NCBI GenBank assembly: GCA_963740355.1
Contig: CAVUDW010000003.1
Location: 1,376,001 to 1,440,000, forward strand
Source: an uncultured Gemmatimonadaceae bacterium
Lineage (GTDB): Bacteria; Gemmatimonadota; Gemmatimonadetes; Gemmatimonadales; Gemmatimonadaceae
Direction: 5' to 3'
Length of the DNA: 64,000 nucleotides
In this document: one piece after another, positions 16,140-21,646 of the stretch
How positions within the stretch are numbered: the stretch's first letter is position 1
Layout of the letters: the number at the start of each line of letters is the position of its first letter
Made by a program: the position numbers and the translations under genes
The notes under the pieces: generated by a model
Seen by the model: the letters and a program-made list of their open reading frames with translations, nothing else
The model's database searches: none
Told to the model about the DNA's origin: nothing

Positions 16140-17777
16140 CTACCGTCGATAGCCCGCAGTGTTCCGCGTGCCGTCGACACAGGCCGGCCAGGTGCCCGGC
16201 GCACCGTTCGGGCCGGCTGGCAGCGGGTCGACTTTCACACGCCGCATCTGCGTCGGATCTTCGCTGGCGAGATATATCAACATCGCGACCAGCGTCGCAT
16301 TCTGCTTCAGGTCGTCCACCACGATCTTGTCGAACGTGTCACGATTCGTGTGCCACGTGGTCGAGCCGTAATCCCAGCCCAGTGCACCAACGCCGAAGGC
16401 CGGCGCACCGGCGCAGGTGAAGCTCACATGGTCCGTGCCACCGCTGCCTGGCTGACCCACGCCGCCGTAGCGGATCCACTGCGTAAAGTCGCTCGGCAGC
16501 TGCGACAGGTAGCCGCGCAGCACGGTGTCGGCCGACGTCAGGCCGCTCGCGCTCATGCTGATGATGCGGCCAGTACCGTTGTCCTGGTTGAAGAGCGCCT
16601 GCAGGCCATTCACCACTTCCGGGTGATCCTTCACGTACGAGCGCGAACCGTTCAGGCCCTGCTCTTCACCGCCCCAGTGGCCGGCGATGATCGTGCGCTT
16701 CGGCTTGTACCCGACACTCTTCAGGATGCGCATCGCTTCCAGCATCGTGATGGTGCCGGTCGCATTGTCGGTGGCACCACTGCCGGCTTCCCACGAATCC
16801 ATGTGGGCGGAAAGCATCACATACTGATTGGCGTTCTTGCCGGTGCCCTTGATCTCGCCGAGGGTGTTGGTGACCGGCACTTCGCCGAGGTTTTCGCTTT
16901 CGATCTGCACGCGCAGCTTGGGGCCCTGCTTGTTCGTCGAAAGGCGATAGACGAGGCCGTAGTCTTCGCAGCTCAAGTCGAACGTCGGCACCTGCTGCCG
17001 AGGCGAACCAAACGTCTTGTTGATGCCGGGATAGTTGGACCAACCGAAGGTCACGACACCCGCCGCGCCGTAGGCCTTGAGGCTGTCCTGCAGCCCGGCG
17101 GCGGAGACGTTGCGATTGTTGAAGCTGATGCGGATCGAATCCTGCGCGGCGCGCATCGAGGCCAGCGTGGCCGGCGTCGCGAACTCGGCCAGCTGCTGCG
17201 GGCTGCGGCAGCTGAGCTGCGGCGCGTTGATCATCACGAACTTGCCGCGCGTGGCCATCAACCAGGCATGCGCTGCATCAGCCGACTCGAACTGCGGCAA
17301 CACGACCACGTCGCCAGTGACGGCGCCGTTGGTCGACGGGCTCCACGACAACATGGTGCCTTCGAGGGTCCGCGTCCGCGGTGCGACGAGGTCAATGTGG
17401 GTCACGCCGCGCTTGAAGCTGCTCCACGTGCCCCACTGTTCCTTCTTGGCCGAGATGCCCCACTCGGCGTACTTCTTCAGCAGCCAGTCACCGGCGGCGG
17501 TGAAGCCGGGCGACCCGGTGAGCCGCGGTCCGATGGAATCGGTCAGCACCTGCGCCAGCGCACCGGCCTGCGAGCGCTGCATGCCCTCTTCCATGATCCG
17601 CAGCATCACGGGATCGGTGACGGGCGTCCGGCGCACCCACTCCGGCCACGCCTCAGGCGCGATGGGCTTCGCCATGGAGTTCTGAACCACCGGCGCCTCG
17701 ACAGGGCGCTGGCCTGACACCATCACCGGCGTGAGCACCGCGGCGGCGAGGGACAAGCGTCGGACAAACAGGGTCAT
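16140..17777 (-). CDS. Secreted M28-family peptidase (carboxypeptidase Q-like)
   Basis: Signal peptide, IGPRLTGSP, SAHMDSW, GATDNATG, GEEQGLNGS, GTDH, WHTNRDT; ATG 17777. Confidence 0.92.
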   Translation of the reverse strand: MTLFVRRLSLAAAVLTPVMVSGQRPVEAPVVQNSMAKPIAPEAWPEWVRRTPVTDPVMLRIMEEGMQRSQAGALAQVLTDSIGPRLTGSPGFTAAGDWLLKKYAEWGISAKKEQWGTWSSFKRGVTHIDLVAPRTRTLEGTMLSWSPSTNGAVTGDVVVLPQFESADAAHAWLMATRGKFVMINAPQLSCRSPQQLAEFATPATLASMRAAQDSIRISFNNRNVSAAGLQDSLKAYGAAGVVTFGWSNYPGINKTFGSPRQQVPTFDLSCEDYGLVYRLSTNKQGPKLRVQIESENLGEVPVTNTLGEIKGTGKNANQYVMLSAHMDSWEAGSGATDNATGTITMLEAMRILKSVGYKPKRTIIAGHWGGEEQGLNGSRSYVKDHPEVVNGLQALFNQDNGTGRIISMSASGLTSADTVLRGYLSQLPSDFTQWIRYGGVGQPGSGGTDHVSFTCAGAPAFGVGALGWDYGSTTWHTNRDTFDKIVVDDLKQNATLVAMLIYLASEDPTQMRRVKVDPLPAGPNGAPGTWPACVDGTRNTAGYRR

Positions 17778-17897
17778 GCAGGAGCCTCGAAGTCGAAGAG
17801 AAGCGGTCAAATCTGACCACTGCGCTACGACCGTGCTCCCTTCGCTGTTATTGCGAGTCACTTCCCGATAGCTGCAAAGCTCTCGTGCTCCGCTTCG

Positions 17898-17936
17898 CGC
17901 CGTTCCTCCGCGCCGTTCCTCCGCGCCGTTCCTCCG
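17898..17936. repeat. Tandem repeat, 3 x CGCCGTTCCTCCG
   Basis: Exact 13-mer at 17898, 17911 and 17924. Confidence 0.9.
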
Positions 17937-17948
17937 CGCGCACCCGCC

Positions 17949-18296
17949 GCGACGCTGCGCTTTCGCCTGGCGGTCCACACTTCCTCACGCGGAGGCGCGG
18001 AGGACCGCGGAGCCGCGGAGCTTTCGCTCCCGGCAGCCAGCTCTTGCTTGGGCCAGGAGGATGAACTGCAGGGGAACTGCGCTCGCGGTCGCCACCCCCG
18101 GCTCCAAGTAGCACCTAGCAGCCACCGCAACGTTGCCAAGCGGGCCGACACCCCAAAAAGCAGTTGCTGTTACCGTTTGCCCTTCGCCCGGTGTGGACCC
18201 CTCCGCCGCCAAAGGCGTCCGGGCCCTCCTCCGCGTCTCCGCGTCCCCCGCGGCTCCGCGAGTTTGACCGTGTGGACCAGAGCCGCCAAAGGCGTC
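17949..18296. repeat. Long-inverted-repeat element, copy 2
   Basis: First ~70 bp nearly identical to 50871-50942; right arm CTCCGCGTCCCCCGCGGCTCCGCG..TGTGGACC; internal AGGGGAACTGC and AAAGCAGTTGCTGTT. Confidence 0.8.
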
Positions 18297-18343
18297 CAAA
18301 GGCCCGCCGGCGTGAGATTGAGGACCCCGTCCGCAAAACACTC

Positions 18344-18382
18344 AAAACAGAACGGGCCGCCTTCCCGGAGGAAGACGACCCG
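18344..18382 (-). terminator. Intrinsic terminator (minus strand)
   Basis: CGGGTCGTCTTCC-TCCG-GGAAGGCGGCCCG then TTCTGTTTT; two G-U pairs form only on the minus strand. Confidence 0.75.
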
Positions 18383-18490
18383 CACTACACGCGGCGAAGC
18401 GCTCGGGATCGCTTTGCACGCGCACAGTAGCGGCGCTTCGTCGCGCCAGGCTCGGTCAGTCGGAGGGAGCCACGAGCACACTCCCGATGC
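18344..18490 (-). ncRNA. Candidate ~150-nt small RNA
   Basis: Bounded by a sigma54-like promoter and a terminator; several hairpins; no credible ORF with RBS. Confidence 0.45.
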
Positions 18491-18501
18491 CCAATGGATG
18501 G

Positions 18502-18517
18502 GCACGTCAAATGCCAA
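18502..18517 (-). promoter_or_regulatory. Candidate sigma54 (-24/-12) promoter
   Basis: TTGGCAT-TTGAC-GTGC matches TGGCAY-N5-TTGC spacing with one mismatch; IHF-like site at 18567-18595 upstream. Confidence 0.55.
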
Positions 18518-18729
18518 GCTCGGCCATTGCCGGAGCCGTACGCCTGCGCCGCGCCGCGCGACACGCCGTAACGCCATGCTTCTTAATCACTTACGACAAG
18601 ACGACCGACATCGGATTGATGCCGGTCGTCTCCAAATCGTGCGCAAGTCGCAAGTTCAGTCGAACTCGACTGTGGCGCGAATCCTACTGTTCAGCTCGCA
18701 GAATGTAGGATCATTGCGGCGGCCGTCGC

Positions 18730-20133
18730 CTAGAGGCGCGGACTGAGGCCATCCGCCAGCGAGCTCTGATAGGCGCGCCAGGCCGGGACCAATCCTACCA
18801 GCACGCCCGCCGCCAGGACGACGGCGATGTACGCCCATTCCAGCGGGCCAGGCGCCTGCACAGCGATGTGCACACCCGTCTTCGACTCGATCACACCCTG
18901 GGCCAGTGCGAAACCACCCATCACCAATCCAATGCCGAGCGCACAACCCAAAAGGGTGAGGAGCCCGCTTTCGAGCACGAGGAGCGCCACGATCATCGAC
19001 GGGCGAGCGCCAACCGCGCGCAGCACCGCCATCTCGCGACGACGCGCTTCGAGGGAGGAGTAGAGTGCGACCAGCATGCCGATCAGGCCCACCACGATCG
19101 TCAGCGCTCCCACCAGCCTGAGCCCGCCTTCGACCGCGCCGAGCGTTTTCCAGAGTTCGGCGAGCGTGACGCCCGGGATCACCGCCGTGAGCGGTTCGCC
19201 CTTGAACTGGTTGATCTCGCGCTGGAGGCGCAGCGTCTCGAAGCGCGTCTTGGTGCCGACGAGGAATGCGCTGAGCGCCTTCGGCTGGTCTTCGAAGATG
19301 TTGGCGGGCACTGTGTACGCTGGGGCCGTGGCGCCGGGCATCGCTGGCTGGGTCGCGCCTGGCATTGCCGGTGGCGTCGCACCGGGCATTGCGGGCGCTG
19401 CGCTCGGCGCCGTTGCGCTTGGCATCGCTGGTGGCGCTTCGGCACCCGGCATCACCGGCGCACCGCCTGTTCCCGGCATCGCGCCCGCTTCGCCGCCGTG
19501 CATCGCCTCGATGCCATCAAGCGTCACGAACAATGCACGATCGAGCGGCGTGAACGTCTGCTGCAGCACACCCACCACCGTGAATGGATGCGACTCGTGA
19601 TCACCCAGCCCCGCGACCGCGTTCAGGCCATGCCCCACCGTGACCTTCGATCCGACGCGGTAGCCAAGCTTGTCCGCCACTTCACTGCCGATCACCACAT
19701 CACTGTCGGCCGCGATCACCGTGCCGGCGGCGAAGGTCAACTTGCCGGAACTGCGATAGCGCCAATGTTCGAACAATCCCGCCGTAGTGCCGATCACGCG
19801 ATACCCGCGATGTGAATCGCCGATCGCGAGAGGGACGGTCCACTTGATGGCCGGGTGCTTGGTGAACTGTTCGTAGATCGGATACGGCACACTGCCGGTC
19901 GGCGAACCAATGCCAAACACCGATCCAAGCAAGAGCTGCAGTGTGCCGCCGCGTGCACCGACGACCAGATCAGTGCCCTTGATCGTGCCGGTGAAACTCT
20001 CCCGCATACCGCGGCGCGCCTGCTCCACACCAAGCAGCAGCGTGATGCTCAGTGCGACGGCGGCGACGGTGAGGATCGATGTGACGGGACGATTGCGGAG
20101 CGACCGCCAGGCCAATGCCAGCAGGACGTTCAT
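18730..20133 (-). CDS. FtsX/MacB-type ABC permease (ZrgC-like) with Met-Pro-Ala repeat insertion
   Basis: LAWRSLRNR, GTDLVVGARGG..QLLL, PLAIGDSHRGYRVIGT, RRREMAVLRAVGA, LADGLSPRL. Confidence 0.88.
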   Translation of the reverse strand: MNVLLALAWRSLRNRPVTSILTVAAVALSITLLLGVEQARRGMRESFTGTIKGTDLVVGARGGTLQLLLGSVFGIGSPTGSVPYPIYEQFTKHPAIKWTVPLAIGDSHRGYRVIGTTAGLFEHWRYRSSGKLTFAAGTVIAADSDVVIGSEVADKLGYRVGSKVTVGHGLNAVAGLGDHESHPFTVVGVLQQTFTPLDRALFVTLDGIEAMHGGEAGAMPGTGGAPVMPGAEAPPAMPSATAPSAAPAMPGATPPAMPGATQPAMPGATAPAYTVPANIFEDQPKALSAFLVGTKTRFETLRLQREINQFKGEPLTAVIPGVTLAELWKTLGAVEGGLRLVGALTIVVGLIGMLVALYSSLEARRREMAVLRAVGARPSMIVALLVLESGLLTLLGCALGIGLVMGGFALAQGVIESKTGVHIAVQAPGPLEWAYIAVVLAAGVLVGLVPAWRAYQSSLADGLSPRL

Positions 20134-20843
20134 GCGGCGTCGGCGTGTGCAGCCCGGTTCAGCGTCGGCAACGACAGCTGCGTGTCGAAGCGCGCACCCA
20201 GCCCCGCGTCGTGACTCACGAACAGCAGCGTGGCATTGGCGCGCGCGACACTGCTCGCCAGCAAGGCGAGGAAGGCGTCACGCCGATCGGTGTCGAGCGA
20301 CGACGTCGGTTCATCACAGATCACCAGCTCCGGCGCCGCCAGCAACGCGCGCGCCGCAGCCACGCGCTGCTGCTGGCCCACGCTGAGCGCGGTCGATTGC
20401 TGATCGAGGAGGTTCGCGATGTCGAGTTGTGCCGCCACATCACGAATGGCCGCATCGAGCGAGGTGCTGCCCAACCGCGCGCGTCGCCGCGCATCGAGTC
20501 GGCAGGGGAGCGCGATGTTGTCGTACGCGCTCAGGTACGGAATCAAGTTGAACTGCTGGAACACATAGCCGATGTGCTCCGCACGAAAGGCATCGCGCTG
20601 CGATCCACTCATCGTGACGAGGTCGCGGTCGAGCACCTTCACCGACCCGGTGGTGGCCTGCAGCACGCCGGCGAGGATGCCAAGCAGTGTCGTCTTGCCG
20701 CAGCCGGACGGACCGTGCAGAAAGACTCGACTGCCGCGCTCGATCACCAGCGACGGGATGTCGAGCACACGCGGACCAGAGCCGTACGAGAACTGCAGGG
20801 CGTCGATCGTGATCGCGGCGCCGGCGCGCCCCGCCACGGTCAC
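20130..20843 (-). CDS. ABC transporter ATP-binding protein (ZrgB-like)
   Basis: GPSGCGKT, FQQFNLIPYL, LSVGQQQRVA, DEPTSSLD. Confidence 0.92.
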   Translation of the reverse strand: MTVAGRAGAAITIDALQFSYGSGPRVLDIPSLVIERGSRVFLHGPSGCGKTTLLGILAGVLQATTGSVKVLDRDLVTMSGSQRDAFRAEHIGYVFQQFNLIPYLSAYDNIALPCRLDARRRARLGSTSLDAAIRDVAAQLDIANLLDQQSTALSVGQQQRVAAARALLAAPELVICDEPTSSLDTDRRDAFLALLASSVARANATLLFVSHDAGLGARFDTQLSLPTLNRAAHADAA

Positions 20844-21337
20844 TTCTTCACGTACGGCGACACCTTCATGCCCTTGATCGTGAAGCCTGCGGTGCCGTAG
20901 AGGCTTTCCACGAGGTCGATACCAAGCGTGCCCTCGAGCCAGATCGCCTCGAAGAGATCGAGCCGGACCTTCTGCCGGCCTTCCATCTCCACCAGCACCA
21001 TCTGGTTGGGCGGCGGCGGCGGGGTGTGCACGCAGGCGCCGTAATACGGCACCAGCAGGAACTCGGCATCCTCCTGGCTGGCGTCATCCAGCGGCACCAC
21101 GTAGCCGGCGATCCGGACGACCTGACCGCGGAGCGCGCTCAGGGCGGGCAGCACGGCCCCGGTCTGCGGGTTCATGCCGCCCAGCGTCCGCCAGTCGATC
21201 AGGACCGGATCAGCGACCGTACCCGAGCCCGTGGCCGACACGCTCGTGAGCAGCGCAGGGGTGCCGGACACCCAGGGATCACCCAGCGGCGCGGAAAGCG
21301 CGAGGGCGGCGGCGAGGGCAAGCGGAGTCAGGGGCAT
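20840..21337 (-). CDS. DUF3299-family secreted protein (ZrgD-like)
   Basis: Signal peptide; GYVVPLD, EFLLVPYYGACVHTPPPPPNQMV signature. Confidence 0.88.
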   Translation of the reverse strand: MPLTPLALAAALALSAPLGDPWVSGTPALLTSVSATGSGTVADPVLIDWRTLGGMNPQTGAVLPALSALRGQVVRIAGYVVPLDDASQEDAEFLLVPYYGACVHTPPPPPNQMVLVEMEGRQKVRLDLFEAIWLEGTLGIDLVESLYGTAGFTIKGMKVSPYVKK

Positions 21338-21646
21338 GGGTCTCAGGGGAAAGGCGGGCACTCGACGTAACCAACCGGTCCAATATCGCGTGGACGGCTT
21401 CTACCCCGCGAGTACGGAATGCTGCCACCCACTGCTGAAGCCATGTCGGCGCCCAGCCGCTCACCGAATGTTTGCCTGTCGTTCTGACAGCCCGCAGAGG
21501 GGAAAGGGCCATGACCAACGGACTGCCGCGTCCGCAGGCGGCCGTCGCTCAGCTGTGACGAATGCCCGCATCACCTGTCATGAGGGGAGACGAGAGGCCG
21601 CTTACCCACCCCTTGGGCGGTCCGATCATGTCTGACCCTGTTCCAC

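Follow-up and report, generated by a model that had tools for sequence, protein, structure and literature searches.

A candidate sigma54-controlled small RNA, probably derived from the 3' end of a PEP-CTERM gene, in one genus of Gemmatimonadaceae

The origin of bacterial small RNAs (sRNAs) is an open question, and it is raised in a concrete form by an intergenic unit of an uncultured Gemmatimonadaceae bacterium (assembly GCA_963740355.1, contig CAVUDW010000003.1), in which a promoter of the sigma54 type precedes a series of hairpins. The window analyzed here is the whole stretch of 64,000 nucleotides from this contig; window positions are used throughout, and all features of the unit are read on the minus strand. 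On this strand, the unit is located between a gene for an FtsX/MacB permease, which ends a DUF3299-ABC operon, and a gene for an M28 peptidase. The initial annotation had interpreted it as a complete sigma54 transcription unit without a protein gene, i.e. a candidate novel sRNA, and every motif that it named was recovered on the minus strand where it had been placed. The core of this interpretation was upheld by comparison with relatives, while the layout of the enhancer, the caveat about a terminator of the ABC operon and a hairpin in the 5' segment had to be corrected. The unit and its neighbors comprise the following features:

18730..21361, minus strand: upstream operon of DUF3299, ABC ATPase and FtsX/MacB permease genes (Pfam), a possible source of read-through
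18704..18721, minus strand: enhancer box 1, 18 bp ending in C[C/T]ACA, a predicted sigma54-activator site, with ATCCTAC at 18705-18711
18671..18688, minus strand: enhancer box 2, of the AGT-N12-ACA type; its end lies 154 bp from the -24 TGG
18568..18594, minus strand: IHF-like site, TAA..TTG ... TT[A/G], an island of conservation
18502..18528, minus strand: putative sigma54 promoter with -24/-12 at 18517-18502 and a conserved AATGG..GAG extension (genus comparison)
18344..18490, minus strand: predicted small RNA of ~147 nt, its start placed 12 nt after the -12 C
18448..18490, minus strand: variable 5' segment, unalignable between clades, which bridges promoter and conserved module over the presumed deletion
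18432..18447, minus strand: hairpin 1, GGCGC-N6-GCGCC, probably from the G-A-M-A-R-R codons of a PEP-CTERM tail
18389..18423, minus strand: hairpin 2, extending over what were presumably the last codons, the stop codon and the 3' UTR
18402..18409, minus strand: hairpin-2 loop (A/U)UCCCGAG, the predicted active site, judged by its conservation
18344..18382, minus strand: intrinsic-terminator-like hairpin with the U-rich tail TTCTGTTTT (18344-18352) and two invariant U-G pairs
16140..17849, minus strand: downstream M28 peptidase gene (Pfam), with its own promoter-like motif at 17826-17849

No credible long open reading frame (ORF) was found in the unit and, in the genus comparison, no small conserved one; a small-peptide reading was rejected, as no ORF is conserved among the genomes in which promoter and RNA stand without a protein gene (gene-less genomes). 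The statement that no known RNA family is recognizable was borne out by an Rfam search, which matched neither the unit nor any of six homologous loci. Five sub-threshold matches occur between 16500 and 20500, none of them within the unit, which does not reach the gathering threshold of any Rfam family, including Qrr, GlmY/Z, Pxr, OxyS and the riboswitches.

The distribution of the 3' module was assessed by a DNA search of 41 genomes, which matched 18 of the 19 same-genus relatives. A covariance model built from the copies of these relatives and the source copy detected one strong syntenic copy in 20/20 genus genomes, including genome G003, which was outside the training set (E=9e-13). The FtsX/MacB permease is found upstream of the locus in all 20, in G018 on a separate contig. 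No second copy was detected in the source genome at E below 0.7, and the four weak matches that a search of 151 family genomes gave outside the genus lack the loop and represent terminator-like or different hairpins. In a species-wide collection, 17 of 80 pattern matches fit the model and 63 did not, and all 17 are titled Gemmatimonadaceae, Gemmatimonadales or Gemmatimonadota; for metagenomes, 11 of 33 fit and 22 did not. The genomes compared for the unit are mostly fragmented drafts from one genus, the source genome being 94% complete, and the family-wide tallies include up to five genomes flagged as unpublished, of which the other claims are independent.

Upstream of the predicted RNA, conservation is arranged in islands: the two 18-bp boxes, the IHF-like site and the extended element AATGG..GAG.YTGGCA-N7-TGC, separated by unalignable spacers. 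The sequence TTGGCAT-N5-GTGC at 18517-18502 of the minus strand, proposed earlier as the -24/-12 element, corresponds to GG-N10-GC. Its conservation in homologous loci, on which the candidate had been staked beforehand, was observed in 16/16 gene-less promoter-bearing genomes, in 2/2 intact PEP-CTERM loci and in the sister genus G097. Although the short pattern YTGGCAY-N6-TGC occurs 57 times in the genome, eight of these being intergenic, weight matrices built without the source genome rank the unit's site first in the genome, for the promoter (35.8 vs 17.6 bits for the next site) as well as for the tandem boxes (32.0 vs 18.8 bits). Of 21 genomes examined, 18 gave a match to the tandem boxes (the exceptions being G003, G014, whose enhancer is eroded, and G097), and the box-to--24 spacing is 151-156 bp in the 17 genomes with both elements on one contig. 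Pairwise identity is 0.65 for the boxes, compared to 0.28-0.29 for spacers, and 0.65-0.72 for boxes and promoter, compared to spacer values of 0.28-0.33; this comparison is partly circular, as the motifs were located by pattern. The full enhancer and promoter pattern was found in 7/14 genus genomes and 0/387 others and is too strict, leaving the source genome itself unmatched.

Several details of the earlier layout were revised. The inverted repeat ATCCTAC-N17-GTAGGAT (18681-18711) exists and is better read as the right half of box 1 plus the left half of box 2. The palindrome AGTCGA-AC-TCGACT (18658-18671) and the 14-bp inverted repeat at 18599-18612/18618-18631 (93% complementary) are likewise present, but both are lineage-specific and not conserved in the genus. 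The latter is not a conserved terminator in the genus, contrary to the caveat that it might end the ABC operon, so that this operon may read through to the terminator of the unit, and the region may in that case belong to the 3' UTR of the operon. The suggested IHF-like site withstood comparison, the stretch 18568-18594 being an island of conservation between unalignable spacers, and by the IHF consensus it is a putative IHF site. The genome encodes rpoN (over the profile cut-off), two IHF/HU-family genes and about 10 sigma54 activators; exosortase and csrA are also present. Thus, the unit combines GG-N10-GC, an upstream enhancer, and rpoN and activators in the same genome, the attributes by which a putative sigma54 promoter is recognized. 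A candidate activator at C2:1397373 is present in 18/20 genus genomes and, by synteny, also in G018 and G097, and it was not found in the promoter-less G003. It provides only a weak lead, since close homologues occur in 221/401 family genomes and the G003 contig ends at that very site; two more activators also lack a close match in G003.

The predicted RNA measures 122-228 nt in 16 genomes and 145-160 nt in 13 of these. Measured against shuffled sequences, folding of its 3' 104 nt gives z = -4.77 for the minus and -3.19 for the plus strand, while the 5' segment folds no better than shuffles in the source genome (z = +0.79 and +1.04) and averages -0.70 over 15 genomes. The GGGAG..CTCCC hairpin (18465-18485) described for this segment is present, but it is not conserved. 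The two other hairpins were confirmed. For the GGCGC..GCGCC hairpin at 18432-18447 (hairpin 1), stem identity is 0.95 and loop identity 0.67 in the 16 gene-less genomes; no compensatory change was seen in it, and it is absent where the promoter is lost. The long mismatched stem at 18389-18423 (hairpin 2) is conserved with compensatory changes: in 25 aligned sequences, 5/12 pairs have changed on both sides and 98.3% of cells remain paired. For the whole module, these 25 sequences contain 7 pairs and 16 cells changed on both sides with 98.1% of cells pairing, a number of double-sided changes that none of 500 shuffles reached and that slid controls also fell below. Covariation was additionally computed on 19 sequences; kinship inflates such counts, and they rest on few events, as much of the stem never varies. 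The terminator at 18353-18382 and its U-tract at 18344-18352 exist as annotated, but the tail is weak across the genus, with only 4-8 T per 10 nt in 20 genomes, and the single terminator returned by a dedicated search is uninformative alone, because shuffles give 1.0.

Of the three loops of the module, only that of hairpin 2 is fixed. Its heptamer UCCCGAG is invariant in 25/25 aligned sequences, five of which were found by a pattern containing the heptamer and 20 of which, the genus copies, were not. In one promoter-less lineage (G003/L217/L222/L228), a C-G to U-A swap adjoins the unchanged loop. Among the 16 gene-less genomes, identity is 0.84 for the module, 0.89-0.95 for the stems and 0.95 for the hairpin-2 loop, compared to 0.53 for four-fold sites of the flanking genes and 0.32-0.39 for the flanks. 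In these genomes, the predicted RNA is conserved far above four-fold sites, and the putative promoter is likewise strongly kept. The unit is regarded as a real, genus-restricted RNA gene candidate without Rfam match, with intermediates preserved.

These intermediates point to a protein gene as the source of the RNA. A PEP-CTERM gene, located between permease and M28 genes, ends inside the module in three of the 20 genus genomes (G008, G015 and G018) and on the metagenome contig L227, and both proteins scanned score over the TIGR02595 cut-off. In the three genomes, hairpin 1 read in frame encodes G-A-M/L-A-R-R, and in gene-bearing genomes the stop codon lies within the 5' strand of hairpin 2, so that the module consists of the last codons, the 3' UTR and the terminator. 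The same promoter precedes the PEP-CTERM gene in G008, G015 and L227; in G018 the locus is split, the enhancer ending one contig and the gene being located on another. Sixteen genomes, including the source, lack the gene and keep promoter and RNA. Three features of an OxyS-type gene replacement were found, namely a locus shared with the gene of the relatives, homology to its 3' end, and retained promoter and regulator sites. In the sister genus G097, the same promoter and a PEP-CTERM gene follow the permease with another 3' UTR that lacks the hairpins, and the farther genera parsed contain the insert in no case, most running from the permease straight to the M28 gene. Since G097 has promoter and gene without the module and farther genera have no insert, the gene very probably came first and the gene-less state is derived.

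Trees of the flanking genes suggest that the gene was lost more than once. Genome G010, in which 20 of the 24 membrane-helix-encoding nt that precede hairpin 1 in G015 are retained, is the sister of G015 (support 96/96; 99/96), G008 joins these two, and the gene-less G013+G016 branch next to that group. A single clade of gene-less genomes was rejected (AU p=3.6e-11), as was a single clade of the three gene-bearing genus genomes (AU p=1e-63). It is likely that the coding part was deleted at least three times, a count that follows only if the locus was inherited with its flanks; a similar pattern would arise if the insert alone had recombined. These trees stem from flanking genes only, have a poorly supported backbone and include three rows of odd base composition; an rpoB tree was dropped, as rpoB was matched in only 8/16 genus relatives. 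Thirteen of the gene-less genomes resemble one another in junction length and may go back to a single loss. The promoter was lost in two lineages, G003/L217/L222/L228 and L221 (sister to G014), both of which have no canonical promoter and no hairpin 1 and keep hairpin 2 and the terminator. As a separate observation, the Lys codon AAG that follows CGC CGC in the three gene-bearing genus genomes has TA or CA as its first two bases in 15/16 gene-less copies, including separately derived ones (L012-L016, L001-L011), a change that is possibly convergent once coding was released.

Known systems resemble the unit in different respects. In the account of Krieger et al. (2022, PMC8825220), OxyS replaced its parent gene and consists of ~65 nt of coding sequence, ~25 nt of UTR and a terminator; here, the corresponding parts amount to ~36 nt coding and ~30 nt UTR plus terminator. 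As described for OxyS, the unit occupies the locus of its parent gene, keeps the parent's regulator sites and is formed from last codons, 3' UTR and terminator. Unlike OxyS, to which it has no sequence or Rfam relationship, its predicted parent gene encodes a PEP-CTERM surface protein and is under sigma54 control, and Hfq was not found in its host. While one replacement with two routes left open is described for OxyS in the sections of PMC8825220 on its origin, gene-bearing, gene-less and promoter-less states coexist within the genus of the unit, with at least three inferred losses. GlnZ is an sRNA from the 3' end of the enhancer-controlled glnA mRNA (PMC9731577), and G008, G015, G018 and L227 would represent a comparable state; unlike GlnZ, which PMC9731577 presents as tied to its host mRNA, most lineages here dropped the host gene. 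With Pxr of Myxococcus (PMC5568312), the unit shares a sigma54 promoter, a triple stem-loop, a narrow clade and a GC-rich host in which Hfq is undetected. In contrast to Pxr, it has no Rfam match and does not adjoin its activator gene, as pxr adjoins nla19; a gene-derived origin is not given in the portions of PMC5568312 that deal with pxr. Additionally, a Desulfovibrio response regulator with an sRNA target is described in PMC3333781, where it is unrelated to PEP-CTERM genes in the passages concerned.

The putative promoter resembles that of the PEP-CTERM box/PrsK-PrsR regulon (Haft et al., 2006, PMC1569441; Xia et al., 2023, PMC9850573), in which an ACA-ending, sometimes repeated enhancer is described before the -24/-12 of single PEP-CTERM genes, and an exosortase is encoded in the genome of the unit as well. 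Unlike the sites reported there, the boxes of the unit end in CCACA, not TTTACA, the spacer is ~153 bp vs a mean of 63, and the relevant sections of these papers describe no RNA product. No protein of the genome reached the PrsR model TIGR02915 (best 407.5 vs a cut-off of 502.6 bits). The box pair is a single top site and is absent before 11 other candidate PEP-type ORFs screened in the genome. The best reading of these comparisons is an OxyS-like small RNA that was freed from the 3' end of an mRNA and likely acts in trans through its loop.

As a model, to which we assign a probability of about 0.5, a PEP-CTERM gene, its coding part probably deleted at least three times, left behind its sigma54 promoter and 3' end, and this remnant would yield an Hfq-free RNA of ~147 nt that pairs in trans via UCCCGAG. 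An activator would bind the tandem boxes, IHF would bend the DNA, and RpoN polymerase would start near 18490 and stop near 18344, which is the standard logic of sigma54 transcription. For a PEP-CTERM gene, RpoN dependence is reported in PMC9850573. The RNA would present the fixed UCCCGAG loop on a stem that is free to vary, an arrangement that suggests recognition by a partner, and the loop would pair with a target RNA. Hairpin-2 RNA probably functioned already as a 3'-UTR product before the gene was lost, which would explain both the repeated loss of the coding part and the retention of hairpin 2 after promoter loss; in promoter-less lineages, it would likely be made by read-through from the ABC operon. 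Among these elements, stand-alone transcription upon the activator signal appears quite probable and action in trans is favored to a lesser degree; base pairing rather than protein binding is put forward tentatively.

Target prediction, named as a follow-up in the initial annotation, did not provide a partner: no conserved pairing target was found in a one-genome scan complemented with orthologue checks of four candidates and of PEP-CTERM mRNAs. Three of 13 annotated candidates were followed into relatives. The top candidate leuB (-15.2 kcal/mol) shows full pairing in the source genome only, among the 9/17 orthologues with a parsed start, and the candidate at C3:760415 has no orthologue in 19 relatives. 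None of the orthologues found for lysS (5/5) or for a HEAT-repeat gene (2/2) has the loop complement upstream. Only 2/30 PEP-CTERM mRNAs contain the complement. The identity of the loop heptamer with the 5' end of tRNA-Asn was discarded, as ~0.5 chance matches are expected among 52 tRNA/tmRNA genes. Neither Hfq (PF17209) nor ProQ was found in the 94%-complete genome.

Downstream of the unit, an AAC-N16-TCGTA motif (17826-17849, minus strand) is present in 18/18 aligned M28 upstream regions, 103-2265 nt from the unit's terminator, and presumably resembles an ECF-sigma promoter. The intervening stretch 17876-18300 contains GC-rich short repeats, among them a 13-nt unit repeated 3.4 times (17896-17939), a 16-nt direct repeat (18205/18282) and CCGCG-rich inverted repeats; pieces of it match unrelated environmental contigs, suggesting REP-like or small mobile elements. 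In L015 (G013), a gene judged by eye from its translation to encode a Kup-like transporter lies between the RNA terminator and M28. Upstream, the permease (18730-20133, minus strand) contains, in its periplasmic part, a PAMPGA-like repeat insert that is rich in Pro, Ala and Met and whose length differs among relatives. Elsewhere in the source genome (G000), three tandem PEP-CTERM paralogues (C2:599900-620000), 30-35% identical to the lost protein, adjoin exosortase as well as a polysaccharide cluster that includes a sigma54 activator of its own; these paralogues have another terminator type in common and lack the enhancer of the unit. A tandem-duplicated module of lipoprotein, sigma54 activator, lipoprotein and TPR-like gene (C3:1552000-1561900) has a candidate -24/-12 site in each copy. 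Two slightly different tmRNA genes (C2:2543434-2543790 and C5:28-384) may reflect strain mixing or duplication in the assembly.

Different explanations of the same locus have to be weighed. As no conserved target was found, a close rival is that an RNA of the same origin, freely transcribed upon sigma54 induction, titrates a protein that recognizes the hairpin-2 loop at mRNA 3' ends, in the way in which GlmY acts as a decoy for RapZ. The invariant loop on a structure-conserved stem and the failure to find Hfq and ProQ fit such a decoy. The element is single-copy, with no second site at E below 0.7, which leaves no set of mRNAs for a decoy to act on, and CsrA, though present, has no invariant GGA in the conserved loops, so that a sponge of the CsrB/RsmY type was not recognized; overall, this reading is considered unlikely. 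Similarly doubtful is a role in cis only, with hairpin 2 and the terminator serving as terminator or 3' stabilizer of the ABC (and PEP-CTERM) mRNA and the promoter being kept for other reasons or decaying. Here, hairpin 2 and the terminator persist without promoter and hairpin 1 (G003, L217, L222, L228 and the L221 group), no conserved terminator separates the permease from the unit, terminator stems of a similar kind are found elsewhere in the family, at unrelated loci, and the enhancer of G014 is eroded. However, this reading leaves unexplained why promoter, IHF-like site, enhancer and the 151-156-bp spacing are kept in 15-16 gene-less genomes, although spacer identity there has fallen to 0.24-0.33, and why the hairpin-2 loop is fixed while two others vary.

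Much less probable is a leader or attenuator of M28, in which CCCG of the loop would pair with CGGG of the 5' arm of the terminator and allow read-through. This pairing is possible in 20/20 genomes and, before the 3' arm of the terminator is made, the alternative differs from the best fold by no more than 2 kcal/mol in 6/20; the weak U tails and the adjacency of permease and M28 in farther genera would also agree with it. On the full module, though, the alternative fold is 11.6-20.6 kcal/mol worse in 20/20 genomes, and even on the truncated RNA of the source genome it is 9.8 kcal/mol worse. Given this uncompetitive antiterminator, the variable distance to M28 (103-2265 nt, with another gene between in G013) and the conserved promoter-like motif of M28 itself, the unit was not classified as an attenuator or riboswitch leader. 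The least probable explanation is that the unit is a remnant without function, left by recent deletions, or that it arose in assembly, as might be suspected from the resemblance of G010 to a recent deletion and from the many fragmented drafts; it is opposed by 16 separate gene-less assemblies with differing junction sequences, by conservation far above four-fold sites and by compensatory changes. The trans-acting RNA from a PEP-CTERM mRNA remains the preferred reading.

What this reading would mean concerns an RNA family without Rfam match in a poorly studied phylum; a literature search, outside of which most subscription papers lay, found no sRNA that derives from a PEP-CTERM gene or occurs in Gemmatimonadota. 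For OxyS, it could not be told whether function arose before or after gene decay (PMC8825220, Fig. 7 legend). In this genus, function-first is favored, because gene-bearing genomes already have the complete module, and because it persists after the loss of gene and of promoter in separate lineages. It can be proposed, with less than even confidence, that an RNA born in the 3' end of a PEP-CTERM mRNA came to outvalue the protein, so that coding was lost at least three times and the promoter twice while the loop was spared, and that it acts as an Hfq-free switch of the cell surface or of floc formation. If true, the genus would preserve the birth of an sRNA stepwise, from no RNA to a 3'-UTR RNA, a free sigma54 RNA and an RNA of the neighboring operon.
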